Assembly (NCBI RefSeq): GCF_964213995.1
Contig: NW_027590175.1
Coordinates: forward strand, 496,001-560,000
Direction: 5' to 3'
DNA from: Mustelus asterias
Lineage: Eukaryota
DNA length: 64,000 nucleotides
Shown piece after piece: positions 8,846 through 63,800 of this stretch. The translations under genes and the position numbers were made by a program. The stretch's first letter is position 1. Each line of letters opens with the position of its first letter. Below the pieces are notes generated by a model, which worked only from the letters and a program-made list of their open reading frames with translations, ran no database searches and had not been told where the DNA came from.

Positions 8846-9204
8846 TGAAATGTGCGCTATTTCCTCCAGTTCACTTACAGTATATATTGTATCTGTCTTT
8901 TTGAGCACGCACTGCTGTCAGATATTTCAGATGGTGATTAACCATATTAGTCTGCACCTATAAACCCATTAAATTCTGTTGTAGACTGAACGAGATGCAG
9001 ATATGTGCTCGGTGTCAAAATCAGAACGTTTCTTTCCTGTCAGTGCATCGAAAAAAAGCGCAGCATCTCTTATTTTACAGAAAACATTTGAGGCTGATGT
9101 CAGACGAATGATAACGTGACTGCAATATCAAGGTTCGGATAATGTTGAGCAACAAACTGAAAACAAGCAATTTTCCCTTTCCCGACTTGGGAAAGCTTAA
9201 CGAA

Positions 9205-9276
9205 CGTTTCTGCCCCGTTTCGAACCGGAAACCTTTTGCATGTTAGGTGAATGTGATGACCACTACATTCAGAAAC
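9205..9276 (-). pseudogene. tRNA-Val(AAC) pseudogene, unit 3
   Basis: rc gtttctgaatgtagtggtcatcacattcacctaacatgc...ggttcgaaacggggcagaaac. Confidence 0.75.
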
Positions 9277-10397: not shown

Positions 10398-10470
10398 TGT
10401 TTTTGCCCGCTTTTAAACACGGGTCCTTTCACATATGAGGCAAACGTGACAACCACTACACTACAGAAAC
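10398..10470 (-). pseudogene. tRNA-Val pseudogene, unit 4 (CAC decayed to CAT)
   Basis: rc gtttctgtagtgtagtggttgtcacgtttgcctcatatgtgaaagg; T arm destroyed. Confidence 0.75.
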
Positions 10471-10539
10471 AGCTGACAGCGCAGCACAACCAATCGACCT
10501 GTCTGCAGGTTCCAATGGTTGGACTGAGAGCCCATGTCA

Positions 10540-11905: not shown

Positions 11906-11950
11906 TAATTCGGGAAGATAACCGTTACTTTTAATCTGATTGCTCAACTT

Positions 11951-12930
11951 ACATAGAACATAGAACATAGAAAGCCACAGCACAAACAGGCCCTTCGGCC
12001 CACAGGTTGCGCCGATCACATCCCCACCTCTAGGCCTATCTATAGCCCTCAATCACATTAAATCCCATGTACTCATCCAGAAGTCTCTTAAAAGACCCCA
12101 ACGAGTTTGCCTCCACCACCACCGACGTCAGCCGATTCCACTCACCCACCACCCTCTGAGTGAAAAACCTACACCTGACATCTCCTCTGTACCTACCCCC
12201 CAGCACCTTAAACCTGTGTCCTCTCGTAGCAACCATTTCAGCCCTTGGAAATAGCCTCTGAGAGTCTACCCTATCCAGACCTCTCAACATCTTGTAAACC
12301 TCTATCAGGTCACCTCTCATCCTTCGTCTCTCCAGGGAGAAGAGACCAAGCTCCCTCAACCTATCCTCATAAGGCATGCCCCCCAATCCAGGCAACATCC
12401 TTGTAAATCTCCTCTGCACCCTTTCAATGGCTTCAACATCTTTCCTGTAATGAGGTGACCAGAACTGCGCGCAGTACTCCAAGTGGGGTCTAACCAGGGT
12501 CCTATAAAGCTGCAGCATTATCTCCCGACTCCTAAACTCAATCCCTCGATTAATGAAGGCCAGTACGCCGTACGCCTTCTTGACCGCATCCTCCACCTGC
12601 GAGGCCGATTTAAGAGTCCTATGGACCCGGACCCCAAGGTCCTTCTGATCCTCTACACTGCTAAGAATGGTACCCTTCATACTATATTGCTGCTTCATCC
12701 CATTGGATCTGCCAAAATGGATCACCACACACTTATCCGGGTTGAAGTCCATCTGCCACTTCTCCGCCCAGTCTTGCATTCTATCTATGTCTCGCTGCAA
12801 CTTCTGACATCCCTCCAAACTATCCACAACACCACCTACCTTGGTGTCGTCAGCAAACTTACCAACCCATCCCTCCACTTCCTCATCCAGGTCATTTATG
12901 AAAATGACAAACAGCAAGGGTCCCAGAACA
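11951..12930 (-). mobile_element. 5'-truncated CR1 LINE, open RT C-terminal half
   Basis: VLGPLLFVIFINDL..FADD; (catagaa)n tail at 11951. Confidence 0.95.
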
Positions 12931-13949
12931 ACCTTCAACTTCAAAAGTTAAAAGCGTTCGTCTGGCAAATAGCTAAGTGAGCATTTCTGCCCATTCATTA
13001 TTTCATCATTCTCATCTTCCTTCGAATAATCTCAACCAATTGTACTCAGTAATAACAGCAAATTACTGCGGATGCTGGAATCAGAAACTAAAAGGGAAAA
13101 ATCTGGCAAATCTCACAAGGACGGCAGAATCTATAAGGAGTGAAAAGAGCTGACGTTTCGAGTCAAGATGGCATTTTGTCAAAGCTCATTGTACAATTTT
13201 ACTCAGTATTTGTTTCAATATTTAGTATCAATGCATTATTTAACACATATATCTTCATTATGAATTGAATATCTTTGGAATTGAACATCACTGAACTGCA
13301 AACAGAACTGACCAAGAAAATGAATCGAGTCACCGGGTTAAACAGATCACAATTTTAAGATTGAACATAGACAGCTTTTTAAAAAAGTCAACTGGATCTA
13401 AATGGAAGAGATTTAAGAATTATCTGCGAGTGACCTGAGCCTTTTTTTATTATGGGCGTGAAACATTCAGGTGCATAAATTCCGTCCCTTTACAGGAAAG
13501 GCCAGTTGATCCGCACTGTGTCTCGATCTCCTCAAGTGTCTGAGTGTGTTCTTCCTGTTTCTTTGTGATGTAAAACGATTTTAAAAAAGATTTTCTGTGA
13601 AATATGGGCCCTTTTCTCGAGTTCACTTACAGTATCACTTGTGTCTGTCTTTTGGAGCACACACTGCTATCAGATATTTCAGACAGTGATTAACCATATT
13701 AGTCTGCACCTATAAACCCATTAAATTTTGTTGTCGACTGAACGAGATGCCAATCTGTGCTCGGTGTCGAACTCGAACTTTCCTGTCAGTGCGTGAAAAA
13801 GCAATAGCATTTCTTATTTCACAGAAAGCATTTGAGGGTGATGCCAGAGCAATATTCACATGCCTTTAACATCGAGGCTCGGATAACTTTGAGCAACAAA
13901 CTGAAATCAAGCAAATTTCCTTTACCCGACATGAGAAATGAATAAATCA

Positions 13950-14010
13950 GTTTCGAACCGGGCAACTTTCGCGTGTTAGGCAAACACGAAAACCACTACA
14001 CTATAGAGAC
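13950..14010 (-). pseudogene. tRNA-Val(AAC) pseudogene, unit 5 (3'-truncated)
   Basis: rc gtctctatagtgtagtggttttcgtgtttgcctaacacgcgaaag...ggttcgaaac. Confidence 0.75.
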
Positions 14011-14354
14011 AGCTGGGAGCAAGCTACACCAGATCTGCCTGTCTGCAATGTTCAACTGTGCTTTGTTTCTGCAGGTTGCAATGTTTGGACTGAGAGCCCA
14101 TGTGACTTAATTCAGGAAGATAACCGTTGCTTTCAAACTGACTACTCAACTTATCTTGAACATCAAAGTTTAAAAGCTTTCGTCTGGCAAATATTTAATG
14201 GAGCATTGATTTCTGCTCATTCATTAATGCATCATTCTCATCTTCCTTCGAATAGTCTCAACCAATTGTACTCAGCAACAAAGCAAGTTACTGCGGATAC
14301 CGGAATGGCAAACCAAACAAAAAAATGCTGGAAAATCTCACGTCCTGTGGATTA

Positions 14355-15098
14355 CAGGATCCACCCTGTGGATTACAGGGGCAAAGGTAGGGTTCTGAAG
14401 ACTGTGGAGGAACAGAGAGATCTTGGGGCCCATATCCATAGATCTCTAAAGGTTGCCACTCAAGTGGAGAGAGCTGTGAAGAAGGCCTATAGTGTGTTAG
14501 CTTTTATTCACAGGGGGTTGGAGTTTAAGAGCCGTGGGGTTATGCTGCAACTGTACAGGACCTTGGTGAGACCACATTTGAAATATTGTGTGCAGTTCTG
14601 GTCACCTCACTATAAGAAGGATGTGGAAGCGCTGGAAAGAGTGCAGAGGAGATTTACCAGGATGCTGCCTGGTTTGGAGGGTAGGTCTTATGAGGAAAGG
14701 TTGAGGGAGCTAGGGCTGTTCTCTCTGGAGCGGAGGAGGCTGAGGGGAGACTTAATCGAGGTTTATAAAATGATGAAGGGGATAGATAGAGTGAATGTTC
14801 AAAGACTATTACAAGTTTATTACAAGTGGGCATAACTATAGGGTTCGTGGTGGGAGATATAGGAAGGATATCAGAGATAGGTACTTTACGCAGATAGTGG
14901 TTGGGGTGTGGAATGGACTGCCTGCAGTGATAGTGGAGTCAGACACTTTAGGAACATTCAAGCGGTTATTGGATAGGCACATGGAGCACACCAGGATGAT
15001 GGGGAGTGGGATAGCTTGATCTTGGTTTCAGATAAAGCTCGGCACAACATCGTGGGCCGAAGGGCCTGTTCTGTGCTGTACTGATCTATGTTCTATGT
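14355..15098 (+). mobile_element. 5'-truncated CR1 LINE (same young subfamily as 38788 and 60973)
   Basis: LYRTLVRPHL.YCVQFWSP..ERVQRRFTRM; 3'UTR cttggtttcagataaagctcggcacaacatcg. Confidence 0.95.
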
Positions 15099-15884
15099 CT
15101 GACAGCACCTGTAAGGAGAGAAAGGAGCTGACGTTTCGAGTCCAGATGACACTTTAACAGCGTTCATTGTGCAATTGTACTCAGTATTTGTTTCAATATT
15201 TAGTCTCAATGCATGATTTAACACATATGTATTCATTGAATTGAATGTCCCTGAAATTGAATATCATAGAATTGCAAATATAACGGACCAACAAGAATCG
15301 CGTCACCGGGTAATATAGATCACAATTTTGAGATTGACCACAGCGAACTACATTTAAACAAAGTGAACTACATTTAAATGGACGAGATTGAAGAATTATC
15401 TGTTATTGACACTTGAGTCATTTTAATTCTGGGCGTGAAACTTTCAGGCGGATAAATTCCGGTCATTTAAATGAAAGTCCAGTAGATCCGCACTGAGTCT
15501 CGATTTCCTCATCTGAGTGTTTTTCCCCCCTATTTCTTTGTTTTGAAGAACAATTTAATAAATATTCTTCTGGGAAATGTGCGCCATTCACTTGCCGTTC
15601 ACTTTCAGTATCACTTGTGTCAGTCCCCTGGAGCACATACTACCATTCGAAAAGTTCCAGATGGTGATTAGCTACGTTAATCTGCACCTATAAACTCTTT
15701 ACATTCTGTTGCAGACTGAACGTGATGCGAATATGTGCACAGTTCAAAATCGAAATGTTTCTTTCCTGTCAGTTCGTCAAAAAGCAATCAACATTCTTAT
15801 TTTACAGGAATCATTTGAGGCCGAGGTCAGAGCAAAGATCATATGGCTGCAATATCAAGATTCGGATAATGTTCAGCAACGAAG

Positions 15885-17378
15885 GTCTAATACAGATAGG
15901 AAATATACAGGAAATGGCAGAACCCTTAAGAGTATTGATAGGCAAAGGGATCTTGGTGTACAGGTACATAGGTCACTGAAAGTGGCAATGTAAGTGGAGA
16001 AGGTTGTCAAGAATGCATACGGCATGCTTGCCTTCATCGGCCGGGGCATTGAGTTTAAAAAATGGCAAGTCATATTGCAGCTTTATAGAACCTTAGTTAG
16101 AACATAGAACATTACAGCGCAGTACAGGCTCTTCGGCCCTCGATGTTGCGCCGACCAGTGGAACCAATCTAAAGCCCCTCTAATCTACAATATTCCAATA
16201 TCATCCATATGTTTATCCAATAACCATTTGAATGCTCTTAATGTTGACGAGTCCACTACTGCTGCAGGCAGGGCATTCCACGCCATTACCACTCTCTGAG
16301 TAAAGAACCTACCTCTAACATCTGTCCTATATCTCTCACCCTTCAATTTAAAGCTATGTCCCCTCGTGCAAGCCATCGTGGTCCGAGGAAAAAGGCTCTC
16401 ACTATCCACCCTACCTAATCCTCTGATCATCTATTATGCCTCTATTAAGTCACCTCTTAACCTTCTCTCGAACGAAAACAACCTCAAGCCCCTCAGCCTT
16501 TCCTCATACGATTTTCCAACCATACCAGGCAACATCCTGGTAAATCTCCTCTGCACCCTTTCCAACACTTCCACATCTTTCCTATAATACGGCGACCAAA
16601 ACTGTACGCAATACTCCAAATGCGGCCACACCAGAGTTTTGAACAGTTGCAGCATGACCTCCTGGCTCCGAAACTCAATCCCTCTACCAATAAAAGCTGA
16701 CACACCGTACGCCTTCTTAACAACCCTATCAACCTGGGTGCCAACTTTCAGGGATCTATGCACATGGACACCTCTGTTCATCCACACTACCAAGTATCTA
16801 ACCATTAGCCCAGTACTCTGTGTTACTGTTGGGCCACACTTGGAATGTAGTGTTCAATTCTGGTCGCCACACTACCAGAAGGATGTGGAGGCTTTGGCGA
16901 GGGTACAGAAAAGATTTCCCAGGATGTTGCCTGGTATGGAGGACAGTAGCTATGAGGAGAGGTTGGAGAAACTTGGTTTGTTCTCACTGGAGTTTGAGGG
17001 GAGACCTGATAGAAGTCGACATGATTGTGAGAGGCATGGAGAGAGTGGATAGTCAGAAGCTTTTTCCCATGGTGGAAGAGTCAATTACTAGGGGACATCT
17101 GTTTAAGGTGCGAGGGGCAATGTTTAAATGAGATGTACGAGGCAGATCTTTTACACAGAGAGTAGTGGGTGCCTGGAACTCGTGGCCGGGGGAGGTAATG
17201 GAAGCGGATATAGTCGTGACTTCTAAGGGGCGTCTTGACAAGTACATGAATAGGATGGGAATAGTGGGATATGATCCCCGGAAGGGTAGGGTGTTTTAAT
17301 GAACTCGGGCAGGATGGTCGGTGCAGGCTTGGAGGGCCGAAGGGCTGTTCCTGTGCTGTAATTTTCTTAGTTCTTTGT
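15885..17378. mobile_element. Nested CR1s: plus-strand CR1 (15885-16100, 16828-17378) split by a minus-strand CR1 (16101-16827)
   Basis: Host reads ...ccttagttag | ...gttgggccacacttgg across the insert. Confidence 0.9.
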
Positions 17379-17426
17379 ACTGAAATCATACAGATTTCCA
17401 CACCCTGAATTAGAAAACTTAATGAA

Positions 17427-17499
17427 TATTTCTGCCCGGTTTTGAACTGGGAACTTTGCGCGTGTGAGGTGAACGTGATAACCACTACACTACAGAAAC
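17427..17499 (-). pseudogene. tRNA-Val(CAC) pseudogene, unit 6
   Basis: rc gtttctgtagtgtagtggttatcacgttcacctcacacgcgcaaag... Confidence 0.8.
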
Positions 17500-17507
17500 G
17501 GGTGACA

Positions 17508-19371: not shown

Positions 19372-19460
19372 GGCTCGTTGGTCTAGGGGTATGATTCTCG
19401 CTTAGGGTATCTAGCCCATTAGCATGCGAGAGGTCCGGGGTTCAAATCCCGGACGAGCCC
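19372..19460 (+). tRNA. tRNA-Pro(AGG) with 17-nt intron at 37/38 (19408-19424)
   Basis: Exons match the vertebrate Pro body (GGCTCGTTGGTCTAGGGGTATGATTCTCGCTTAGGG / TGCGAGAGGTC..TTCAAATCCCGGACGAGCCC); one G-G mismatch in T stem; T-run downstream. Confidence 0.85.
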
Positions 19461-19789
19461 CTCATTTGTTTCTTTTTGACCAAGTCAGATATTGTGATTT
19501 GTTTCAGGTTCAAAGGTGGGATGGCTTTCTGCTGACTGGCTACGAAAACGAATCAAAGAGGCACAGAGTTTTACAGCACGGAAAGAGTCCACTCGGTCAC
19601 CCACATGGCAGGCGCGGACACCCATCATGTCCGCGCCTGCCATGTGACATCTGGACGGGAAACGTTAGTTCTGATTCTCGCTCCACAGATAGTGCCAGAA
19701 ATACTGACATAACCCAGTATTTTCTGTTTTTATTTCAGATTTCGAAAGTCCGCTGTGTGCTGCATTATATAAGACTTTATGTTTTGGGT

Positions 19790-30065: not shown

Positions 30066-30575
30066 ATTTGTAGATACGTTTCACCTCGGAGTGAGGAAAA
30101 TAGAAATAATTCACGTTTATTGCTGAATATTAGCTGAATACAGTAACTTACACGATGTTACATTTCGCCTTCCCCTCCACATTTCTGTACACACTCAAAC
30201 CCGACAGAATATCTTTAACTGGCTCCCGTTTCCAGCTCTGTCAGTTCAGAAAGCTTCTCTCAAACTTCCACATTCGGGCTTTTTCTTTTGGTCATTCGTG
30301 AAACATTGGCGTCGCTGGCCAACATTTAATGCCCATCCCGAGTTGAGTTGCAAGCATATTGCTGTGGCTCTGGATTCACAAGTAGGCCAGACAAGAACAG
30401 CAGATTTCCTTCCTAAAATACATGAGTGAACCATATGGGTTCCTCCAACAGTCGGAAATTGTTTCATGGTCATCAATGCGAGGTTTTATTTATTGAATTC
30501 AAATTCCACTACCGACCGTAACCGTCCCCAAAATGGTAGCTGGTCAAGCGATAGTAGCACCAACAGCATCTCACG

Positions 30576-30670
30576 TGCTGCAGGTGAGGCTCGAACTCAC
30601 AACCCCGGCATGGCCCGCTGGCTGTACTGCTCTATAAGTACCGCGCGCTAACCGATTGCGCCACTGGAGC
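30576..30670 (-). tRNA. tRNA-Ile(TAT) with 21-nt intron (30612-30632)
   Basis: rc GCTCCAGTGGCGCAATCGGTTAGCGCGCGGTACTTATA[intron]ATGCCGGGGTTGTGAGTTCGAGCCTCACCTGCAGCA; C4-C69 mismatch. Confidence 0.85.
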
Positions 30671-37135: not shown

Positions 37136-37741
37136 CCTGATACCATTGTTTATTGCCCCTTCCGTCACGTTACTGATGATCAGGAGTAGACTGATGGTAA
37201 TTTGCGGCGTTGGCTTTGACCTGATATTTGTAAACCGGGCAATCTTGGGCAAATTGTAGCATTGGCGGTTAGATGGCAGTGTTGTAGCGTAGGAACAGCT
37301 TAGCTCGGATTGCGGTAAGATCTGAATCTGAATTCTTCAGCACCATTGCCAGAATATATTTTTACGGCCATAGCATTTGCTGTTTTCAATGCTTTCAACT
37401 TTCTTTTTCTTTAATTCAAATCAAATGGAATTGGCATTTTTTCCGTTCAGTGTCTTCCCGACTCTGTCTCTATCTTTCTCTTTGTAGATCTGCGTCGGTT
37501 ATTCCCTCGCTCAGTCTCTCCATCCAATTCCCCTCTTTTGTTCTTTTTTATTCATTATATTCTCTCCATGTCTGGGTGGAATCAAGCTTCATTGAATTGA
37601 TTCCTGAGATGAGGTGGTTGTTGAGCTGGGCACACGTCTTGATCTTCAGTGGCGGAGGAGACTCAACGGGACATGTGATCCAATCCCACCTCATTGGTTC
37701 TGTTCACTGCCAATAACAGCTCTGGTAGCAATCACTTCTGA

Positions 37742-38100
37742 TGGTGTCACTGATGAGAATTCGAGGACACTAAATTGAGGATAGCGCTATTTGTGGAGGA
37801 GTGGGTTCAAATTCCCCCACCGTCAGATGTTCACTTAATTTGCTTTAAACGTTAAGAATAACGTTGGTCAAACATGTGATCGCCAAAATGTTTCGCAGTG
37901 GAATGTATCATCATTCATTTTGATGAGAGGAACCAGAAGAGGCAATGTAAAATGAGAAACTAACGGGATTGTGGAAGCAGTTTTGTTGCTTCTCCAGTAA
38001 ACCCAATCTTCTTCAGCTGTACGGACTGCTGTGTTTCTGGAGTGTAGTGGTTATCACGTTCATTTCACACGCGAAACGTTCCTGGTTCAAGACCGCGTTA
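37742..38100 (+). pseudogene. Decayed tRNA-Leu (~37742-37825) and tRNA-Val(CAC) (38033-38100)
   Basis: ggaggagtgggttcaaattccc; gtttctggagtgtagtggttatcacgttcatttcacacgcgaa. Confidence 0.6.
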
Positions 38101-38468
38101 GATTAACTGACACAAGGAATGATGGACAAGTGCAACATTGAGCTGGTGATGGTGGGGTCCGGGTGATCTATTGCTGCCGAATCAGTGTTTTCACCGCCAG
38201 GGCCCGGGGTTTACAACAATCGATAACTAAGGAGAACATTTTGAATTTGCTCCGTTTGTGAGGATAATTGGACCTGAACACAAGGAAAGAGGTGCATTTT
38301 ACTGGCATCATAAAGTGATATCATGATTGAGTGAATGTGTCGCAGGCGAAAGTGGCCTGAAATGAAACAATGACTAAAGCGATGATGATCAACTGATTGC
38401 AAATCTCTGAAATCAGCTTCACTGGACGTTTCGTGGTCAAAATTCAGTACGGTGGTTCGGGTTTGATT

Positions 38469-40965
38469 ATTTTAAATTGTCAGAAAGTGTAAATCTAAAC
38501 ACTGACGAAATCTCAGTAAATTCCAGGGCAATCAAATTGCAGACGCTGCAGCGAATGCCTCTCCTGGCGTCATTGCATCAACCCCAGAGGATGATTGCTC
38601 AGGAATACAATGCGCTGAGAGGCAGGGAAGCCACTGTAGACAGCGGAGTCCATCTTCATGTGTCGTGTCATTCACTCACTCATCTGTCCCAATTTAAAGA
38701 GTTCGGAAGCGAGAGGCCAGAGTGCGATCCGTTACACCATGGAATCGACAGCTCTGTGACCGAAGACACTGGACTTTTCTCCCAAAAAGGGAGCTGGGGC
38801 TGTTCTCTCTGGAGCGGAGGAGGTTGAGGGGAGACTTAATAGAGGTTTATAAAATGATGAAGGGGATAGATAGAGTGAACGTTCAAAGACTATTTCCTCG
38901 GGTGGATGGAGCTATTACAAGGGGGCATAACTATAGGGTTCATGGTGGGAGATACAGGAAGGATATCAGAGGTAGGTTCTTTACGCAGAGAGTGGGTGGG
39001 GTGTGGAATGGACTGCCTGCAGTGATAGTGGAGTCAGACACTTTAGGAACATTTAAGCGGTTATTGGATAGGCACATGGAGCACACCAGGATGATAGGGA
39101 GTGGGATAGCTTGATCTTGGTTTCAGATAAAGCTCGGCACAACATCGTGGGCCGAAGGGCCTGTTCTGGGCTGTACTGTTCTATGTTCTATGTTCTAAAT
39201 CACACACACGTACCAACACTCGCTCTCTCACGCTCACGCGCACGCACACACACACGCACTTGCTCAATAATTGCTGCACTTAGTCGGACCATATCAGATG
39301 TAATTTCAGAATCCTTGATTGCAGCCCCACGTTAGACTCAATCGTGTTTAACCTTTGCTGCTTTCCTGGGTGAACCCCAGCTCTCCATCCCTCGGGCAGC
39401 GTCACCATTCAAACTGAATCTTTTCCCATCCCGCTTTGTTGATCTCAGTGTCTGAATGAAAACTAATGTTCGTTCGGTGAGAAGTTTTCTTCTTACCCTG
39501 GGAATCTTTATCCAGAAATGCGTGATATTTTTGTCAGTGTAAACGGTTAAATCTGGCCCATTAGCACCCAGACGTTACCTTGTTTCACGATCTCTATCGG
39601 CAGAACCTTCCACCCTATCACTGTCCTTCACTCTCTGTGTTTGTTCTTGACCAGTTGCACATGTGACATTTCCAGCTCGCAAGCAAAACTACAAATCTCA
39701 CTCCACTGATTCTGACAGAGCTGTTTTCGATCAGGAAGTACTTCAAGTTTTAAAAAAAATCAAAAACATTAAATCTGAGTACATGGAAGCCAGTCTGCGA
39801 CCCTGAAAGCGCCGACCACTCACGACTAGATGACCAGGATCCCACCTGCCCGATTCTCCCAGATACTGATTACAGCAATGTGCGCAGTGCCAATTATCCA
39901 CAGACACACTCTCCTTCCTGTCTGTTAAGGTTAGCAATTGTTCACATTTTCACACTGGCTTCCAATGCGACGAAAATAGAGGGTGAACAGCTGATGCTGT
40001 TCAGTAGATTTACCACAATAAAGTTTATAACAGGTCGATGCTAACATTGCTCTTTGAATGTGGTGAGCTGCAGTGAAATTCAATGCAGTTGAAGATAGCG
40101 TACTCATTATTTTAGGAGGAAACAACAAGGGCATTGTCAAAATGAATTGCTGCGGGTAATTGACGGGATTGTGGAATGGGAATGATTTTTCTCACTGCTG
40201 TTCAAACTGGCACAGGTATTGCATGATTATTTGCAGGCGGCGACTGCGTGTTGGGTTCCGTGGTGTAATGGTGAGCACTCTGGACTTTAAATCCAGCAAT
40301 CCGAGTTCAAATCTCGGCGGAACCTTGCTTTAATTAGTCAACACTGATGGTTGATTTGCCGAAGGGAGTTTTGTTCAATATTTTCACAAAGTCCGAATCG
40401 AGAGGACAATTTGTCAGCCAGTTCAACTGCTATTACAATGCGTATTGCTGAGCCTCTGGCGCCAGATGCCTGCCGCATCAATGTCTTTTCATATTTTTTC
40501 TTCTCTTCAAATACTCTGTTGAAGGAAAGGAGCAGCTGGTGCCGGAGCAACAGCCATTCGAATGGAGTCCAGCAATTATTGAGCAAGTGTGTGTATGTGT
40601 GCGCGCGCGCGTGAGAGAGAGCGAGTGTAGGTGCGTGTGTGTGTTTTGGGAGAAAAGTCTAGTGTCTTCGGTCACTGTGCTGTCGATTCCATGGTGTAAC
40701 GGATCGCACTCTGGCCTCTCGCTTCCAAACTCTTTAAATTGGGACAGATGAGTGAGTGAATGACACGACACATGAAGATGGGCCCCACTGTCTACAGTGG
40801 CTTCCCTGCCTCTAAGCGCATTGTATTCCTGAGCAATCATCCTCTGGGGCTGATGCAATGACACCAGGAGAGGCATCCGCTGCAGCGTCTGCAATTTGAT
40901 TGCCGTGGAATTTGCTGAGATTTCGTCAATGTTTAGATTTCCACTTTCTGACTATTTAAAATAAA
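38469..40965. repeat. Inverted duplication, arms ~38469-39280 (with CR1 insert 38788-39198) and ~40566-40965
   Basis: ORF track gives near-identical peptides on opposite strands (QTLQRMPLL.SLHQPQRMIAQEYNALRG...). Confidence 0.92.
40254..40325 (+). tRNA. tRNA-Gln body with TTA anticodon (candidate ochre suppressor)
   Basis: GGTTCCG/CGGAACC, CTGGA-CTTTAAA-TCCAG and CCGAG-TTCAAAT-CTCGG all paired. Confidence 0.8.
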
Positions 40966-41009
40966 ATGCCCTCCTGCAAACCCATCATCGGCTTTAGCAA
41001 AAAAAAGCA

Positions 41010-41769
41010 AGGCTCCGCCACGATGCAAACTCGGGCTGTTGGATTCAGATTCCAGAGCGCTCACTGGTACACCACATATCCCAGAACGCGCCCACCGCTG
41101 GCAAATGGTCACTCGAAGAATTTGATCTCTTTCATTCGGTGTGACAGCAACAGCAAGTGTGACAACAACGTATCGTTATGCGCCACCGTTGAAAGCAGAA
41201 AAGCTCAGAAGACAGAGTGCCCCAAATCTACAGCAAATCAATTCACCGCAAGAGCTTTCGGGAGATATCTCCAGAAATAGTCAGGTTTCGCAGGTCATTT
41301 GCAGTTCCTTGACGTGTTCTGTGTTCCGTGGTGTAATGGTGAGCTCTCTGTCCTTTGAATCCAGCGATCTGAGTGCAAATCTCGGCGGAACCTTCCTTTC
41401 CTTCGCCAATGCTGATAATTGATTTTCTCAAGAACATTTCGTTTACATTTTTCACCAAGTACGAATCGAGAGGACAATTTGTCAATGCACTTTGCTGAGA
41501 CTCTGGCGCCAGATGCTTGCAGCATCAGTGTTTTTCTTTTTTCATCTTTCGCCACTCTTTGACGCTCTGTCGAATCAAAGGAGCAGTTGGTGTCAAACAA
41601 CAACAACCCTTCGACAGGAGCCTGGCAATAATTGAGCAAGAGTGTGTATGTGTGAGATCGGGGTGAAAGACCTCCTGCTTTCAGCTGGCGCCCTGTTGGT
41701 TCCATGGTTTAACGGTGAGCACTCTGGACTTTGAATCCAACAATCCGAGTTCGAATCTCAGTGGAACCA
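41010..41769. pseudogene. Three tRNA-Gln pseudogenes: CTG (41010-41081, -), TTG (41322-41393, +), TTG (41698-41769, +)
   Basis: Gln bodies with several stem or B-box substitutions. Confidence 0.8.
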
Positions 41770-41839
41770 CTGTTCTCAACACCCCAACTCTTGCTGAACT
41801 GCGGACAGATAACTCAGTGAATGATATCGGACAACTGTG

Positions 41840-42140
41840 CGTTTTGTGGTTAGCACTGCTGCCTCGCAGTACCAGGGCCCGGCATTCAGTTCTGGCTTCG
41901 GGTGACTGAGTGCAGTTTGCACATTCTCCCCGTGTCTGCGTGTGTGGAAGAAAACCGAGCACCCGGCGCACAATCCAAAGATGTGCGTGTTAGGTTGATT
42001 GGTCATGTTACGTTGCCCTTAGAATCAGGGGACGAACAGGGTAAATATGTGGGATTACGGGGATAGAGCCTGGGTGGAATTACTGCTGGTGCAGGATAGA
42101 TGGGCCGAATGGCTTCCTTCTGCACGATAAAGGTTCTATC
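41840..42140 (+). mobile_element. HE1-like SINE
   Basis: gtggttagcactgctgcctc head; gatgggccgaatggcttcc tail. Confidence 0.8.
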
Positions 42141-42207
42141 ATTCTGCCTCCGAGCTCTTTACATTCTTGAGCAATCGTCCTCTGGGGCTGAAGTCGTTTC
42201 GCGAGGA

Positions 42208-45200
42208 CAGTGGCTCCCAAACCTTTATCACGGGGCCGCACTTTCGGAATAAAAATTTGCTCGCGCCACACCAAAATCTTTATTGATAAGAAATACATTC
42301 AAAAACAAAAAAAAAAACAACTCCTCGCAGTGCTTCATTCATAACATAGAACACAACTACTTTCTAATATGATCATGGAACATCCAGAAAGTATAAAACA
42401 ATGCAGCGACATAAAAACATGATTCATTCCCAAAATATACTTATAGACGAGCCCCTTGCATATGTAACCTTAAGTAAGTATGCAAACTCCATGAGAGGTG
42501 TGGGCTTGTTTTTGTCGGGTAATCTCATTTACATTTGGTCTAATTTGAGACAAACAAACTCTCATCTCCTCATCAACACAAAGAAGCCTTTCTCTTTTCT
42601 GGTCTTTGATATTTGTCAGAGCTAAAAATCCCTGTTCACAACAATATGTCGTGGAGAACTGTAGAAGAATAGCTCATGCTCTTGAAGAGATGTGTGGATA
42701 CTGTTTCTGGTTGTATATCCAAAAAGAGTCCAGTGGCATACTCCCGTGTTTCATTTTCAAGGTGCGATCACTCGAAATGCAGGCCATTTCCTCCTCCTCA
42801 TCCAATGTCAGACCTGAACAGCTGGAATTCGCAAAGCGGTCTCTAACACAGTCGAATTTTTTCTGTCGACAACGATGGGAAGTAATGATCAATCTTTTCT
42901 ACCAGTGTTGCAAGATGTTCCTGTCTGAGGCCGTACGATTCATTGCTTGTTTGAAAACTTTTTAAGAGTGGGAACATTTCGAGATTATGTTGCATTGCTC
43001 TTCCGAGCCAGAGCTGAAGCTTTTTTTTCAGTGCAGCTGGTTTGTCTGTCGATGTGAGGATATTGTCATCGCAGCCTTGCATACTGGCATTGAGCACATT
43101 CAACCGGGAAGAGATATCGGCCAAATATGCCAGCTTTGCACACCAGTCATTGTCATCCAGTTGGTGGTACAATGGGTTCCCTTCTTGTTCCAAAAATTCT
43201 ATGTCTTTACAGAGTTGAGCAAATAACTGCCCCTTTAGTGGTTTTGCCTTGATGAAGTTCACAATGCGCACAGTCTGATCTAGAACCAACTTCAAATCAG
43301 CTACAAGCGTCTTGGTGATTAATGCCTCTCTGTGTAAAAAACAGTGAGTTGATATTACATCTGGATTTTTCTGTTTGATGAATGCCACCAAGCCTCTCAC
43401 ATTCCCTATCACAAATGGCGCTCCATCCGTACAAATTCCAATACAAGAATCCCATGAAATCTCAACTTTTTCCAAATACTCAAGCAAGGTTTGGAAAATA
43501 TCTTGCCTCTGATATGTTTTTCAAGTTCCTTGCAAATTAGGAACTGTGTGATTATTTCGTCATTGTGAATGAATCTGATATAGGCAAGCAACTGTGCTTT
43601 TCCACAAATGTCGGTCGATTCATCAACTTGAATGGCAAATTTAGAATTCTTCATACTTTCGGAAACACGCTTCTCATTATTAGCTGACATATCAACTATT
43701 CTTGTGTGAATTGTATTATCAGACAAAGGAATTTCCATAACTTCTCGCTCAGCATCATCATCAAACCAAGTTTTCACAATCAAGCTGCAGGCAGGCTGAA
43801 TCACTTTTTCAGCTACAGTATGTGGTTTTGTCTGTTGAGCAATCAATTCAGCCACTTGGTAAGATACAATCTGCATCTTATCTGAGACTGTCATTCGTTT
43901 TGCGAAATATGATAAAGAACAAAGAACAGTACAGCACAGGAAACAGGCCCTTCGGCCCTCCAAGCCTGTGCCGCTCCTTGGTCCAACTAGACCAATCGTT
44001 TGTATCCCTCCATTCCCAGGCTGCTCATGTGACCATCCAGGTAAGTCTTAAACGATGTCAGCGTGCCTGCCTCCACCACTTTACTTGGCAGCGCATTCCA
44101 GGCCCCCACCACCCTCTGTGTAAAAAACGTCCCTCTGATGTCTGAGTTATACTTCGCCCCTCTCAGCTTGAGCCCGTGACCCCTCATGATCGTCACCTCC
44201 GACCTGGGAAAAAGCTTCCCACTGTTCACGCTATCTATACCCTTCAGAATCTTGTATAACTCTATTAGGTCTCCCCTCATTCTCCGTCTTTCCAAGGAGA
44301 ACAACCCCAGTCTACCCAATCTCTCCTCCTAGCTAAGACCCTCCATACCAGGTAACATCCTGGTAAACCTTCTCTGCACTCTCTCCAATGCCTCCACGTC
44401 CTTCTGGTAGTGCGGCGACCAGAACTGGACGCAGTACTCCAAATGTGGCCTAACCAGCGTTCGATACAGCTGCATCATCAGACTCCAGCTTTTATACTCT
44501 ATACCCCATCCTATAAAGGCAAGCATACCATATGCCTTCTTCACCACCTTCTCCGCCTGTGTTGCCACCTTCAAGGATTTGTGGACTTGCACACCTAGGT
44601 CTCTCTGTGTTTCTATACTCCTGATGACTCTGCCATTTATTGTATAACTCCTCCCTACATTATTTCTTCCAAAATGCATCACTTCGCATTTATCCGGATT
44701 AAACTCCATCTGCCATCTCTCCGCCCAATTTTCCAGCCTATCTATATCCTGCTGTATTGCCCGACAATGCTCTTCGCTATCCGCAACTCCAGCCATCTTC
44801 ATGTCATCCGCAAACTTGCTGATTACACCAGTTACACCTTCTTCCAAATCATTTATATATATCACAAATAGCAGAGGTCCCAGTACAGAGCCCTGCGGAA
44901 CACCACTGGTCACAGACCTCCAGCCGGAAAAAGACCCTTCGACCACTACCCTCTGTCTCCTATGGCCAAGCCAGTTCTCCACCCATCTAGCCACTTCCCC
45001 TTGTATCCCATGAGCCTTAACCTTCTTAACCAACCTGCCTTGTGGGACTTTGTCAAATGCCTTACTGAAATCCATATGGACGACATCCACGGCCCTTCCT
45101 TCATCAACCGTTTTTGTCACTTCCTCAAAAAACTCCACCAAATTTGTAAGGCACGATCTCCCTCTTACAAAACCATGCTCTCTGTCACTAATGAGATTGT

Positions 45201-45905
45201 TCCGTTCTAAATGCACATACATCCTGTCTCTAAGAATCCTCTCCAACAACTTCCCTACCACGGACGTCAAGCTCACCGGCCTATAATTTTCTGGGTTATC
45301 CCTGCTACCCTTCTTAAACAACGGGACCACATTCACTATCCTCCAATCCTCAGGGACTTCACCCGTGTCCAAAGAAGCGACAAAGATTTCCGTCAGAGGC
45401 CCATGATCGTTGGCATTTCTGCTGTTCCAAAAGCCTTTCAAAATATTGAACATCCTTGTTTGCCAGATTTCCATGTTTTGACAACAGATGTCTTTTCATC
45501 TTGCTTGGGACCATATTGGAATTGGAAAGCTTCTCACCACAGATCAAACAAATAGGCCGAGGTACGTTTTCATCTCCAGTCCATTTGAAACTGAGACTCA
45601 GATAGCTATCCATATATTGTCGACAAACTTTCTTTTTTGGAGGTTTGCTTGGGCCTGCCACTGGTGTAGAATTAAAGGACTCTTCTTCAGCACCCTGTTC
45701 GAATGGCGATTCTGGATCACAACGTGTACTCGGATCGTCCTCAGCATCACTTGATGCTCTGGTTCTCACTTTGGAAAAATATCTATCCATGTTTAAAAGT
45801 TTCTTTGATTGCCCAGTAGGCCTCAAGGCCGGATCAGATCCGACGGGTCCCGGATTTGCAGCTGCGCGGATTTTATCTGAGATCAGGCCCAGTGCCGTGG
45901 CCGCC
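42208..45905 (-). mobile_element. hAT (Buster/Charlie, ZBED5/SCAND3-like) DNA transposon, defective, one TIR visible
   Basis: TIR cagtggctcccaaacctt at 42208; ATG 45790; BED finger CLIC..H..H; IQVDESTD, CTDGAP, HCFLHRE, CEQGF; frameshifts and internal deletion. Confidence 0.92.
43914..45402 (-). mobile_element. CR1 LINE inserted in the hAT transposase, 5-bp TSD ATGAT
   Basis: ATGAT at 43909-43913 and 45403-45407; RT ORF 44329-45400; (aaagaac)n tail. Confidence 0.95.
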
Positions 45906-45914
45906 ATGTGTAGG

Positions 45915-46780
45915 TTAGGAGATTAGAGGGGTCAGTATTTCAGGGTGTGGGGATAGGGCCTGGTGCAAGCTGCTCTGTTGATTAGTGGGGTCAGTATGTC
46001 AGGGAACAGGGAAAGCGCCTCGGTAAAGGTGCTATGATTAGTGGGGTCAGTATGTCAGGATACAGGGATAGAGCCTGGGGAAAGGTGCTCTGTTGATTAG
46101 TGGGGTCAGTATGTCAGAGCACAGGGATCGGGCCTGGGTCAAGTTGTTCTGTTGATCAGTGAGGTCAGTGTGTCAGGGATAGGGCCTGGAGAAAGGCGCT
46201 CTGTTGATTATTGAGGTCAGTGTATCCAGGTACATGGATAGGGCCTGGGGAAAGGTGCTCTGTTGATTAGGGGGGTCAGTGTGTCAGGGTTCAGGAATCG
46301 GACCTGGGTAAAGGTGCTGTGTTGATTAGTGGGGTCAGCATGTCAGGGGGCATGGATAGGGCCTGGAGAAAGGTGCTCTGTTGATTAGTGAGGTCAGTGT
46401 ATCCGTGTACAGGATAGGGCCCGGGGAAAGGCCCTCTGTTGATTAGTGGGGTCAGTATGTCAGGGCACAGGGATCGGGCTTGGGGAAAGGTGCTCTGTTG
46501 ATTCATGTGGTCAGTATGTCAGGGCACAGGGATAGGGCCTGGGTAACAGTGCTCTGTTGATTAGTTGGGTCAGTATGTCAGCGTACAGGACTAGGGCCTG
46601 GGGAATGTTGCTCTGATTAGTGGGGTCAGTATGTCAGGGTGCAGGGATAGAGCCTGGGTAAAGGTGCTCTGTTGATTAGTGGGGTCAGTATGTCAGGGTA
46701 CCGGGATAAGACCTGGGTAAATGTGCTCTGTTGATTAGTGGGGTCTGGAGTCAGTATGTCAGGGGATTAGTGGGATCTGG
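45915..46780 (+). repeat. Minisatellite, ~59-bp unit, ~15 copies, derived from SINE interior
   Basis: ctgttgattagtggggtcagtatgtcagggtacagggatagggcctgggtaaaggtgct repeated. Confidence 0.92.
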
Positions 46781-47246
46781 AACGAAAGTGATCTGAAATG
46801 ACGCAACAGAAACAGAGAGGGTGACCAGCGAATTAAAAATCCCTGATATTATCTATTGTGGAAGTCGCATTGTGAGGATTCGACGCCACGGAGTGAATAA
46901 CGTCTTTTCTAATTCTTCATTAAATCAAAATACTCCTCACAGTGTCTGTTAAGGGAGAAACAACGTTGATCTTTCAGCTGGTTGAACTTGTATCAGACTG
47001 GGAAAGTCAGAGATGAAACATCAGCAATGAACTCTGAAGAAGAATCACACAGCAGACACACGGCAGACATTTATCACAAAAGGAGCTGACACATGTTAAA
47101 TTCTGCCTCTTTCAAGTCGCATTGATCTAGTCCTTCTTCTCCATTCAGACATTTCCACATCCATCAGATATCACCCACCTGAAAATCCAGCCTGTTCCTC
47201 GTTCCGCTGATGATGATACACTAACTCCGTGCTGAACCCAGCCATT

Positions 47247-47270
47247 GGCTCCATAGCTCAGTGGGTAGAG
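47247..47270 (+). pseudogene. 5' stub of tRNA-Thr paralog, truncated by an old CR1 (~47270-47740)
   Basis: attggctccatagctcagtgggtagag; upstream 46790-47185 is homologous to 4670-5090. Confidence 0.75.
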
Positions 47271-48005
47271 GAGATTGGGTGTAATGTTGGAAAGTGACAA
47301 GATGTTCTCTCGTTCGTAAACGAGGGAAGAGCAAAGCATGTTTGAAAATGGGAGCTGATTTATCAGTGTTGATGTTCAGAATGACTTGGGTGCTTTTGTA
47401 AAAGGAACACTTGACATTCGCGTGCAGGTGCAGCCGATAATTAGAAAGGCAAATGCAAGCAGATTGGAATACAAGAATAAGAACAAAACTTGCTACAGTT
47501 TTATGGGGTTTCGCTGGGACCACATGTGGCACAGTGTGTGCAATTTTGATATCCACATTTACAAAAGAATAGCATTGCACTGGAAACAGTCTCTGGGATG
47601 AGAGAGTTCTCCTGGGATGAGAGGTTGTGTAAACTGCGCTGAAATTACCTGAAGCTAAAAAAAAGTGAGAGGATATCTCATTGAATCCTGCTGAATACCG
47701 AGACATTGTTTGCACTGGTCGGGAAATCTAAACCAGTCTCAAGATGAGCACACCTCGGCGAACTGACACAAAAGCACTTACAGACATGACTCTTATTAGA
47801 TTCTAATTCTTAACTTTCATAACATATTTGAAATAAATATATTGATGCATGTATTATGTATGGAATTAATATTTATTACAGAAATAATGTTGGTGACACC
47901 GGTTAACAGTAGAGACCACAACACTTGAGAAATATTTTTCGTTTTGCCCAAGGTCCCAGGCACTCTGTGACAATGAGTGCTGATGGAGAAAAAATAGAAA
48001 ACTCT

Positions 48006-48528
48006 GTCAGGGGATTGGTGTCGAACCACCAACCGATCTGTTAATAGTCGAATGCGCTGATCAATTGCGCTTAACAGACTGGCATATACTGAGCCGACAC
48101 TATATTAGAGTGTCAGCGAGTGCTGGATATAATCTAAAGTAATTTTATTTTGTATAAAACCAAATCCAGAACTTTCGCATTACCACACCATTTACAATTC
48201 TATTCAGTCAATTTGACTATTTCATCCACACAGTGTTGCTGTGAGTTAGTGGTTTACCCGTTCTCCTAACATGGGAAGGGACCGTTTGAAATGGCAGACA
48301 GGGAGAAACTGTTTCCACTGAATGGGATCAGTAGCCAGAGGACTGGCACTGAAGATTCTCAAAGGCAGACTTGCATTTATATAGCGCCATTCCCGATTAT
48401 TGGACGCCAAACGCGCTCATCAGCCAATGATAGGCAGTTATAATTGAAAATGCAAACTTGCCAACCAAACATTGAAGATGGCATTGATTTATCTGCAGTC
48501 AAATGCTCAACCACTGAGCTGTACCCCT
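48006..48528 (-). pseudogene. Decayed tRNA-Asn (~48006-48079) and 5' half of tRNA-Cys(GCA) (48487-48528)
   Basis: rc ggttggtggttcgac; rc ggggtacagctcagtggttgagcatttgactgcagat. Confidence 0.7.
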
Positions 48529-50104
48529 CAGTTATCAGTTAAGGCTCCGGATCCAGCATGATACTGTTTTCTGCGTGAAGTGCAAGAGTCTAGTGTTTAA
48601 TTCAGCGAGACATTTCATTTTAATTTGACCAAAATTTGGATCCAGATCTTGGAGATACCTGTGTCAGTGGAAATAACAAAACCTACTCCATTGCCACCCA
48701 GATTTCATCTTGTGTCGCAATCTTTACGATCAGCTCTTTGCAGCCTATTGCTCAACTTCACTATCTGTGTTTGTTGTTGGCCTATTGCCCATGCGACATT
48801 TCCAATACGGACACAAATCTCGAAAACTCATTCCACTGATTCTGACAGCGCTGTTTTCGATTAGGTCTGTTAAACGGATTCTCAAAAAGATTACATTTTA
48901 GTACATCGAAGCCGTGACCCTGAAAACTCAGAATTCTAACCACTTGACCATCAGGATCTCATCTTCCTGATTCTTCCAGATACTCATTACAGGAATGAGC
49001 ACAGTGTCAATTACCCACAGTGACACCTCATTTCAGTCCTATGCACGCGATTAAGCTTTAAAATTAATTATATTTCCACATGAGCTTCCAGCGTGACGAA
49101 CGCAGAGCTGTGATCAGCTGATGTTGTTCAACAAATTTACAGCATTAAGGTTTATAATAGGTCGATGCTAACACTGTTCTTTGAATGTAGTGAGTTACAG
49201 TGACATTTAATGCAAGAGAAGATAGCTTACTCATTTTGACAGGAGAAACCAGCCGGGCAATGCAAATGTGAATTGCTGTGGGCAATGGATGGGATTGTAG
49301 AATGGGTCTGGTTATTCTCCCTGATGTTTAAACTGGCACAAGTACCAGTACCGTTGGAGGAAATAATTTCAGCTTCTCTTAATTCCAGCGCTGCACGAGA
49401 GCAAACAACGATCATTACCTGACAGGGAATCGATCCCTCGTCAACCTGCGATAATTATTTCACCTCAGTGTCGAATTCATGTTGCAGCTGAGACCAATCA
49501 GTGCTCTCCTTAGCTGAAGGAGGGTTGGTGTTCCAGCTCAACATGGCATTTTGTCCGACAAACATGTCTTAGATACTTTAAACATGTTGACGTTGATAGA
49601 TGAGGTTAAAATCCTTGCAAGTATGTTCCTTGGTAGTCCAGTGGTTAGGTCTCAGCGCTTTTACCGCCGCAGCCCGGGTTCTTTTCCAATCAGAGAATTA
49701 AAATTGATTTCTCTGGCACGGGGCATGAATTAAGAGGAGGTGAAATAACTTCCTGATAGGACACGGGAGATTTTCAAAAACACGAAGAAAATATCCGTCT
49801 CTTAGCACAACCACGCCAATTTCCTGCATCAATTTATATTAACCTTGCCTCTGCTGGTCCCTCCTGTCAAATTGGACAACCATACATTCTATTGCATTAA
49901 GTTTGAACCCAAAAAAAGTGTTCGATCGAAAGTATTTCATGAAGTTTAAATTAAATCAAAAGTTTTAACAAACGAACCCACGTCCTCCAAAAATCTGCCA
50001 GCTTGCATGCAGTGCCTTAGGCCAGTGATCAACCTTACTGACATAATAATTTGTTGACAGATCTGGATTGCCAGTCAACAGAATCAATGGAGTAGGATTG
50101 CATC

Positions 50105-50450
50105 ACATCATAGAAATCATAGAAATCATAGAAACCCTACAGTGCAGAAGGAGGCCATTCGGCCCATCGAGTCTGCACCGACCACAATCCCACCCAGGCC
50201 CTACCCCTACATATTTTACCCGCTAATCCCACTAACCTACGCATCACAGGACTCTAAGGGGCAATTTTTAACCTGGCCAATCAACCTAACCCGCACATCT
50301 TTGGACTGTGGGAGGAAACCGGAGCACCCGGAGGAAACCCACGCAGACACGAGGAGAATGTGCAAACTCCACACAGACAGTGACCCGAGCTGGGAATCGA
50401 ACCCGGGACCCTGGAGCAGTGCTAACCACTGTGCTACCGTGCCGCCCCAT
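50105..50450 (-). mobile_element. Young HE1-like SINE
   Basis: Well-conserved head and core; (catagaaat)n tail. Confidence 0.9.
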
Positions 50451-60859: not shown

Positions 60860-63800
60860 AGAACATAGAACATAGAACATTAGAGCGCAGTACAGGCTCT
60901 TCGGCCCTCGATGTTGCGCCGACCAGTGGAACCAATCTAAAGCCTATCTAATCTATACGCTTCCAATATCATTTGCCACTCAAGTGGATAGAGCGGTGAA
61001 GAATGCCTATAGTGTGTTAGCTTTTATTAACGGGGGTTGGAGTTTAAGAGCCGTGGGGTTATGCTGCAACTGTACAGGACCTTGGTGAGGCCACATTTGG
61101 AATATTGTGTGCAGTTCTCGTCACCTCACTATAAGAAGGATGTGGAAGCGCTGGAAAGAGTGCAGAGGAGATTTACCAGGATGCTGCCTGGTTTGGAGGG
61201 TAGGTCTTATGAGGAAAGGTTGAGGGAGCTAGGGCTGTTCTCTCTGGAGCGGAGGAGGTTGAGGGGAAACTTAATAGAGGTTTATAAAATGATGAAGGGG
61301 ATAGATAGAGTGAACGTTCAAAGACTATTTCCTCGGGTGGATGGAGCTATTACAAGGGGGCATAACTATAGGGTTCCTGGTGGGAGATATAGGAAGGATA
61401 TCAGAGGTAGGTGTTTTACGCAGAGAGTGGTTGGGTGTGGAATGGACTGCCTGCAGTGATAGTGGAGTCAGACACTTTAGGAACATTTAAGTGGTATTGG
61501 ATAGGCACATGGAGCACACCAGGATGATAGGGAGTGGGATAGCTTGATCTTGGTTTCAGATAAAGCTCGGCACAACATCGTGGGCCAAAGGGCCTGTTCT
61601 GTGCTGTACTGTTCTATGTTCTATGTTCTATCCATATGTTTATCCAATAACCGTTTGAATGCTCTTAATGTTGACGAGTTCAGTACTGCTGCAGGCAATG
61701 CATTCCACGCCCTTACTACTCTCTGAGTAAAGAACCTACCTCTAATATCTGTCCTATTTCTCTCACCCCTCAATTTAAGGCTATGTCCTTTCTTGCTAGC
61801 TAACACCATCCGAGGAAAAAGGCTCTCACTATCCACCCTATCTAACCCTCTGATCATCTTGTATGCCTCTATTAAGTCACCTCTTAACCTTCTTCTCTCT
61901 AACGAAAACAACCTCAAGCCCGTCAGCCTTTCTTCATACGATTTTCCCACCATACCAGGCAACATCCTGGTAATTCTCCTCTGCACCCTTTCCAACACTT
62001 CCCCATCTTTCCTATAATATGGATATCAGAACTGTATGCAATACTCCAGATGCGGCCGCACCAAAGTTTTGTACAGTTGCAGCATGACCTCCTGGCTCCG
62101 AAACTCAATCCCTCTACCAATAAAAGCTAACACACCATACACCTCCTTAACAACCCTATCAACCTGGGTGCCAACTTTCAGGGATCTATGCACATGGACA
62201 CCCAGATCTCTCTGTTCATCCACACTACCAAGTATCTCACCATTATCCCAGTACTCTGTATTCCTGTTACTCCTTCCAAAGTGAATCACCTCACACCTTT
62301 CCGCATTAAACTCCATTTGCCACCTGTCAGCCCAGCCCTGCAGCTTATCTATGTCCCTCTGTACCCTGCCACTTCCCTCCGCACTGTCTACAACTCCACC
62401 GACTTTAGTGTCATCCGCAAATTTACTAATCCATCCTTCAACGCCCTCATCCAGGTCATTAAGAAAAATGACAAACAGCAGTGGCCCCAAAACAGATCCT
62501 TGTGGTACACCACTAGTAACTGAACTCCAGGATGAAAATTTCCCACCCTCTGTTTTCTTACAGCTAGCCAATTCCTGATCCAAACCACTAAATCACCCTC
62601 AATCCCATGTGTCCGTATTTTCTGCAAAAGCTTACCATGGGGAACCTTATCAAACGCTTTGCTGAAATCCATATACACCACATCAACCGCTTTATCCTCA
62701 TCCACCTCTTTGGTCACCTTCTCAAAGAACTCAACAAGGTTTGTGAGGCACGACCTACCCTTCACAAAACCAAAATCAAAATCAAATTATTCCTTTCCAG
62801 GTAATTATAAATCCTTTCTCTTGTATTCCTTTCCAATACTTTCCCCACAACAGAAGTAAGGCTCACCGGTCTATAATTACCAGGGTTGTCCCTACTCCCC
62901 TTCTTGAACAAGGATACAACATTTGCTATCCTCCAGTCTTCTGGAACTGTTCCTGTAGACAATGACGATGCAAAGATCAAAGCCAAAGGCTCTGCAATCT
63001 CCTCTCTAGCATCCCAGAGAATTCTAGGATAAATCCCATCCGGCAGAGGGGACTTATCTATTTTTACCCTTTCCAGAATTGCTAACACCTCCTCCTTATG
63101 AACATCAATCCCATTCAGTCCAACAGCCTGCATCTCAGTACTCCCCTCGACAACACTGTCCCTCTCCAGTGTGAACACCGGCGAAAAATATTCTTTTAGT
63201 GCCTCTCCTATCTCTTCAGACTCCGCGTACAACTTCCCACTGCTGTCCTTGACTGGCCCTAATCTTCCCCTTGTCATTCTTTTACTCCTGACATACCTAT
63301 AGAAAGCTTGAGGGTTTTCCTTGATCCTACCTGCCAAGGACTTCTCATGTCCCCTCCTGGCTCATCTTAACTCTTCCTGTACGTCCTTCCTGGCTAACCT
63401 GTAACCCTCAAGTGCCCTAACTGAGCCTTCACGTCTCATCTGAACATAAGTCTCCTTCTTCCTCTTGACAAGAGATTCAACCTCCTTAGTAAACCAAGGT
63501 TCCCTCACACGTCTGCTTCCTCCCTGCCTGACAGGTACATATTTATCAAGGACGTGTAGTAGCTGTTCCTTGAACAAGTTCCACATGACAATTGTGCCCA
63601 TCCCCTGCAGTTTCCTTCCCCAACCTATGCCAGCTGAATCTCGCCTAATCGCATCATAATTTCCTTACCCCCCTGCTCTAACTCTTGCCCTTTGGTATAT
63701 ACCTATCCTTTTCCATTGCTAAGGTAAACGTAATCGAATTGTGTTCACTGTCACCAAAGTGCGTACTTACCTCCAAATCTAACACCTGGCCTGGTTCATT

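Follow-up and report, generated by a model that had tools for sequence, protein, structure and literature searches.

Results

A tRNA-Gln-bodied gene with a stop anticodon

The window analysed here is a stretch of 64,000 nucleotides (G000:C143:496001-560000) from a 3.68 Gb assembly, located on a 0.94 Mb contig and covering part of a repetitive tRNA mega-cluster. The features relevant to the present analysis, in window coordinates, are as follows.

37702-50108 (+): duplicated block of 12.4 kb, 98.8% identical to G000:C71:17810298-17822692 (123 substitutions, 4 gaps)
40234-40253 (+): inner 5' flank, a hypermutable stretch; among the 25 nearest copies it ranks first of 119 windows of 20 nt (25 changes vs 6.6 expected)
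40254-40325 (+): intronless tRNA gene of 72 nt with a Gln body and the anticodon TTA, nominally an ochre suppressor; ARAGORN, Rfam, pairing check and fold
40261-40272 (+): A box, intact, tRNA positions 8-19; 7 changes at 12 sites on the 100-copy tree vs about 3.6 per site in the flanks
40287-40289 (+): anticodon TTA; 40289 is tRNA position 36, A here and G in the twin and in 23/23 other near copies
40305-40313 (+): B box in the T arm, intact; sequence and fold
40329-40335 (+): T-rich stretch (TTTAATT) just 3' of the gene; sequence
40369-40372 (+): first canonical T4 terminator, 43 nt past the discriminator base
41010-41081 (-): decayed tRNA-Gln(CTG) of the same cassette, 53/72 identical
41322-41393 (+): damaged tRNA-Gln(TTG) of the same cassette, 4 broken pairs (via the identical body of its twin), 31.6 bits
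41698-41769 (+): damaged tRNA-Gln(TTG) of the same cassette, 3 broken pairs (counted by eye), 51.1 bits

ARAGORN called a tRNA-Stop(tta) at 40253-40326, and Rfam model RF00005 gave 69.4 bits for 40254-40325, which ranks second among the 11 tRNA matches in the window and first among its Gln copies, as compared with 68.3-70.0 bits for four Gln genes located on large contigs. All 21 of 21 stem pairs are standard, and the minimum free energy structure is a cloverleaf (−25.8 kcal/mol, z −3.5) that none of 200 shuffled sequences equalled. The anticodon loop at 40285-40291 reads C-T-TTA-A-A. The description given in the original prediction, namely that all stems pair around this loop with intact A and B boxes, that this is the best-preserved Gln copy in the window while the others have several broken pairs, and that the nearest T4 lies some 45 nt downstream, was thus confirmed. 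Its wording ‘structurally perfect’ is correct as far as the pairing is concerned but does not single out this copy, as 72 of the 100 family copies in the sample are likewise paired at all 21 positions of the stems; since, in addition, the body of a TTG twin (see below) is almost the same, the perfect structure must have been inherited.

The anticodon departs from the YTG expected of tRNA-Gln and is complementary to the stop codon UAA, yet no marks of a pseudogene or of a tRNA-derived SINE were found, the pairing being complete and the covariance score normal. Descent from tRNA-Gln is indicated by 68/72 identity to a CTG gene on contig C10, whose terminator sits at +4. Unrelated flanks, as in a retroposed context, were not seen; homology between the copies extends for kilobases into the flanks, the pattern of segmental duplication. 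The first 10 trailer bases are common to 59/100 family copies, and the T-rich stretch immediately 3' of the gene is possibly a weak non-canonical terminator. As the first T4 lies at +30 to +60 in 78/100 family copies, its position at +43 is typical of the family. Human tRNA genes with a distant T4 are reported to be transcribed (PMC3141230), and by analogy this position would be compatible with expression of the TTA copy.

Other tRNA genes in the window

A tRNA-Pro(AGG) at 19372-19461 (+) has 17 additional nt following position 37, which ARAGORN in its intron mode treats as an intron. All 12 homologues fetched (12/12) possess a variable insert of 17-18 nt between conserved exons, and all 40 matches scored were at least 91% identical; judged from these sequences, the gene belongs to a multi-copy family of intron-containing tRNA-Pro genes, which fits the excess of intron-containing tRNAs described for sharks (bioRxiv 10.1101/2025.06.08.657570). 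At 30575-30670 (-), ARAGORN called a tRNA-Tyr(ata), although its sequence points to a TAT anticodon and to the presence of an intron. This element is likely a tRNA-Ile(TAT) with some broken pairs. Furthermore, a 302 bp near-palindrome at 4943-5244 (92.7% self-complementary) ends 40 bp upstream of an intact tRNA-Thr(AGT) at 5284-5356, and tRNA-Val copies, in part decayed, form an array at 6100-17500 whose duplicated units are 76-81% identical.

A single, likely recent G36A change in a duplicated cassette

The exact TTA anticodon arm occurs once in the whole 3.68 Gb, and when the search was relaxed to two half-patterns, with 6 and 8 matches, no second TTA came up. The assembly-wide count of TTA-Gln copies, which the original prediction had proposed as a check, thus gave one with these patterns. 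In a DNA search that included the flanks, the 40 scored out of 739 candidates showed 82-100% identity. The gene occupies one slot of a four-Gln cassette of at least 2.6 kb that is repeated across contig C71 and many small contigs. The C71 counterpart of the 12.4 kb block contains a TTG twin of the TTA gene that is identical at 71/72 bases, whereas the blocks adjoining 37702-50108 are only 91-96% identical to C71. A block of 98.8% identity flanked by such blocks implies that, at the level of sequence, the TTA locus is a paralogue or a recombinant with respect to C71 and not plainly the second haplotype. A plain allelic haplotig of C71 was rejected on the same grounds, as identity forms a mosaic of 91-98.8%, whereas another contig pair of this assembly reaches 99.92%.

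Because a TTG twin with otherwise the same body lies in this 98.8% identical block, the TTA anticodon most likely stems from a single recent change of G36 to A. A36 is one of six substitutions private to the TTA copy in ∼2.4 kb. Private alleles in its flanks lie at 39506, 40125, 40513 and 40814. As A36 is private and G was found in 23 compared copies, we infer that the change is younger than ∼1% divergence. Gene conversion from an amber (CTA) donor is an unlikely source, as only a tract confined between positions 34 and 45, where the donors differ, could account for it. Cassette DNA was also found as a 321 bp inverted duplicate (95%), at 38467-38787 and 40644-40964, which contains a 5' tRNA-Gln fragment and adjoins a young repeat fragment at 38788-39197 (97% identical to 61223-61630).

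Stop-anticodon copies have arisen repeatedly in the Gln family

When the anticodon was left free, the strict arm pattern matched 91 sites in the assembly, which by hand count comprised 47 CTG, 41 TTG, 1 TTA, 1 CTA and 1 CCG. The two half-patterns detected, besides the single TTA, eight distinct CTA Gln loci. The 3' half-pattern alone matched 151 YTG and 8 YTA anticodons, one altered at position 35 and none with a pyrimidine at position 36. The sole position-35 change found lies at G000:C71:19217708, where a Gln body in decay, with four broken pairs, has the Arg anticodon CCG.

An intact amber Gln gene (21/21 pairs, 65 bits) is present at both C71:7380811 and C159:285961, within a 19.8 kb block in which the two contigs are 99.92% identical, differing by 9 substitutions and 4 gaps. 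Such a block suggests that the pair represents both haplotypes or a very recent duplicate; an error is unlikely here and, on sequence grounds, this pair is a better-supported suppressor candidate than the TTA copy of the window. In one further CTA copy (55.3 bits) several changes to G-U have left the stems paired. Another four have lost two pairs each, and the CTA copy on contig C13 is heavily decayed.

Flanking sequences of 100 copies (57 CTG, 35 TTG, 7 CTA and 1 TTA) were used to build a tree. Of 119 input rows, 9 duplicates and 10 belonging to small flank clusters had been left out; sampling was complete for the A36 copies (all 8) but not for the G36 copies, of which 92 were included. On this tree G36A occurred in five separate events, giving clades of 1, 1, 1, 2 and 3 copies, and the decayed C13 copy makes a sixth, so that TTA and amber copies together represent at least six events. 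The only clade of three has two broken pairs. All events are shallow and independent, and no old or expanded clade of intact suppressor genes is present on the 100-copy flank tree.

Conserved bodies and hypermutable 5' flanks suggest a transcribed family

Active tRNA genes have been described as having conserved bodies together with a 20-base 5' flank diverging at ∼4 times the reference rate, most strongly 10-15 bases upstream (Thornlow et al., PMC6130373). The same contrast was examined on the 100-copy tree using body positions 1-20, a segment that none of the search patterns covers. These positions had undergone 15 changes and the 5' flank 138, each against 72.9 expected; after removal of 16 long-branch rows of the 100, the figures were 12 and 117 against 43.8. 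In both sets of rows, therefore, the body is conserved 3.6- to 4.9-fold and the 5' flank hypermutable 1.9- to 2.7-fold. Changes in the 5' flank are likewise raised on terminal branches (68 vs 36), and the most raised class is C>T (7.75 vs 2.11 per site, from only 4 C sites). In the acceptor and D stems, pair-breaking changes were depleted (16 vs 58.3 expected), whereas pair-keeping changes were not (24 vs 23.2).

These patterns resemble the signature of transcription-associated mutagenesis, and the family is thus likely to be transcribed. The sequence evidence for activity applies, however, to the family and not to the TTA copy today. Among its 25 nearest copies (25 of 30 kept, five with partial or distant flanks being dropped), 17 of the 25 changes in the −1 to −20 window fall at −11 to −20. 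Body changes in this set occur at the background rate (21 vs 23.8), so that this sub-clade may be relaxed or silent. The damaged Gln slots similarly show raised 5' flanks (11-17 vs 6.6), and the patterns by which copies were selected favour intact genes.

G36A appears tolerated rather than favoured

The five G36A events compare with 1.57 predicted from the non-CpG G>A rate of the flanks (P 0.022), or with 0.96 after removal of the 16 long-branch rows (P 0.003), whereas G>A changes at the G sites of body positions 1-20 are depleted (2 vs 12.6 expected). The test was post hoc, and the excess weakens to P 0.057 with a 1.3x correction for sampling and disappears (P 0.21) if transcription is allowed to raise the rate 2x. 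The silent isoacceptor switch C34T provides a second yardstick, with 9 events vs 1.64 predicted (6 vs 0.92 in the cleaned set). CTG-to-TTG switching has accordingly taken place 6-9 times on a CTG-type body in this family, at more than five times the flank rate, and gene conversion could add to this count. G36A, with five events, is nearly as frequent as this silent change and therefore looks weakly purged. Taken together, the counts read as a mutable anticodon combined with weak purging of suppressor alleles and not as positive selection, which is disfavoured because the tree lacks an old or expanded clade of intact suppressor genes; the excess would nevertheless be compatible with mild positive retention.

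Discussion

The TTA gene as a probable tolerated by-product of a large gene family

The explanation that we favour, with a probability of roughly 0.6, is that the TTA gene arose by recent point mutation in one copy of a family that is likely transcribed, and that it is tolerated as a by-product, without having been selected for suppression. One member of the large Gln family would have acquired G36A and, if transcribed by Pol III into a long trailer, would yield a tRNA after trailer removal and CCA addition. By analogy with engineered human Gln-UAA tRNAs, GlnRS would be expected to charge it despite A36, and the product would then compete with eRF1 at UAA, mostly losing at normal stop codons. 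Eukaryotic ochre suppressors with a modified U34 read mainly UAA and not UAG. Being one of at least 160 matching copies, it would supply less than 1% of all Gln tRNA, provided that expression is equal among copies, so Gln would be inserted at UAA only rarely and the allele would be near-neutral; with such a small expected effect, alleles of this kind would be able to persist. The same change in at least five other lineages further suggests that TTA is likely tolerated mutational noise and not a new genetic code. As human Gln-UAA is a strong suppressor, a highly expressed TTA copy might not be harmless.

The label ‘candidate ochre suppressor’ given in the original prediction is fair at the level of the gene, whose family shows the flank signature of active genes, so that transcription is more plausible than that prediction supposed; it has to be read, however, against the finding that the variant is private and would be diluted 1 in at least 150. 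Private status, seen in both the comparison of near copies and the assembly search, had been named beforehand, jointly with a lack of Pol III occupancy or of mature tRNA, as telling against the prediction, and its own caveat that G36A resembles early decay comes nearer the truth, the change being private to a terminal branch and 5/8 amber copies having broken pairs. We would describe the TTA copy as a candidate natural suppressor allele that is probably transcribed, strongly diluted and near-neutral.

Taken a step further, the early-decay caveat would make the copy silent or unprocessed, so that no mature tRNA is produced and A36 is the first step of pseudogene decay. We consider this possible though on balance unlikely. 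It accords with the decay of the remaining three Gln slots of the cassette, with the lack of body conservation among the 25 nearest copies, with the damaged amber copies and with a terminator at +43 compared with +3 to +12 in six large-contig genes; moreover, the authors of tRNAscan-SE point out that conflicts between anticodon and isotype often mark slowly decaying elements (PMC8450103). However, the 5' flank is hypermutable even among those 25 copies, and also on terminal branches, the TTA gene body has no other defect, and distant terminators are compatible with transcription (PMC3141230).

In the opposite direction, the cluster might keep a standing pool of expressed and charged ochre and amber Gln suppressors that cause measurable natural read-through in healthy animals of a vertebrate species over evolutionary time. 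This follows if G36A, being about as frequent as C34T and barely purged, is taken to mean that the intact suppressor genes, namely the TTA copy and the amber copy on two contigs, are transcribed and charged, a step that we regard as quite doubtful.

An assembly or consensus error at 40289 is very unlikely. It is true that TTA is represented only once, in a repetitive cluster and on a contig of 0.94 Mb. The two independently assembled contigs that carry the intact amber gene, however, with no more than 9 substitutions plus 4 gaps along 19.8 kb, cap the substitution error rate at ∼2e-4 per base if rates are alike, whereas private substitutions on the TTA branch amount to 2.5e-3 per base, which makes an artefact at most ∼1 in 10. 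Furthermore, the differences between the TTA block and its twin are poor in indels, and amber G36A recurs on two contigs in one case and on three in another. Contigs from four sequencing runs over 39300-39950 consisted of short unitigs of many paralogues; one run contig (depth 3.6) matched exactly across the private allele at 39506 but is unlinked to the anticodon and possibly derives from the source sample, and it was given no weight. Finally, a selectively retained endogenous suppressor system for regulated Gln read-through of UAA/UAG in this lineage is highly improbable, since the features that it would explain, namely G36A at 3-5x the flank rate while other body G>A changes are depleted, the near absence of position-35 changes and of pyrimidines at 36, and an intact amber copy on two contigs, are outweighed by events that are all shallow and independent, by a three-copy clade with two broken pairs in place of an old or expanded suppressor clade, and by an excess that was tested post hoc and fades under the corrections given above.

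A single TTA gene of the favoured kind, a tolerated point mutant, is ordinary, and the added value lies in the view of the family. In an expanded vertebrate tRNA cluster, one and the same suppressor mutation has appeared on six or more occasions and is seemingly purged far more weakly than changes that break stems. If the copies are expressed, they would amount to a natural long-term test of the harmlessness of low-dose suppressor tRNAs, which is the central safety assumption of suppressor-tRNA therapy, and would illustrate how a genome with a large gene family can retain an initial move in the direction of a UAR = Gln code.

Comparison with known systems

Predicted tRNAs with stop anticodons are common among assembled eukaryotic genomes, and Gln G36A is already known as a rare human allele. 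For sharks, unusually many and clustered tRNA loci have been described (bioRxiv 10.1101/2025.06.08.657570); the word ‘suppressor’ is absent from the main text of that preprint, although its figure or supplements may list such a category. No report of suppressor tRNAs in sharks was found in the titles and opening lines of abstracts of the best-ranked literature matches, and a keyword search of PMC6779403 and PMC13010820 found no passage on suppressor alleles.

The closest parallel is provided by the human genes tRNA-Gln-CTG-1-5 and -1-2, whose G36A alleles occur at 0.002-0.007% (PMC11212642, Table 1) and represent the same base change in the same isotype in redundant multi-copy genes; such alleles have been attributed to redundancy and transcription-induced mutagenesis (PMC12675287). 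The human alleles are amber and very rare, whereas a single shark assembly contains nine such copies, one of them ochre and eight amber, which trace back to six or more events. Sup-TTA genes have been predicted in 21.65% of sampled eukaryotes (PMC9858662), and GtRNAdb 2.0 contains 263 CTA/TTA predictions in 155 eukaryotes (PMC4702915). Like the shark TTA copy, these tRNAscan-SE predictions combine a stop-reading anticodon with an otherwise normal body in a many-copy genome; in the shark, however, the parent gene, the relative age and the recurrence of the change are resolved on a tree, and the zebrafish Sup-TTA clusters with Lys-TTT and is thus Lys-derived (PMC11417395).

Engineered human Gln suppressors likewise carry an anticodon-only G36A change on a vertebrate Gln body and are chargeable there. 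The Gln-UAA ACE-tRNA gave suppression more than 2000-fold over background, with 3' UTR ribosome density rising only ∼2-fold upon overexpression (PMC6379413), and when a single endogenous Gln gene of human cells was turned into a suppressor by prime editing, a reporter present in one copy showed no significant read-through (PMC12675287). These tRNAs were either overexpressed or present as one copy in a far smaller family than that of the shark gene, which is a putative suppressor.

In ciliates, tRNA-Gln(UUA) is a dedicated, fixed gene that serves a reassigned code in which UAR = Gln. The example from Tetrahymena (PMC9858662) shares with the shark copy a Gln body and a UUA anticodon. The original prediction had drawn this parallel, which is not supported, as the ciliate gene reflects a selected code change, and what was found in the shark, in place of a dedicated, old and conserved lineage, is one TTA copy among independent and shallow events, a private allele on a terminal branch.
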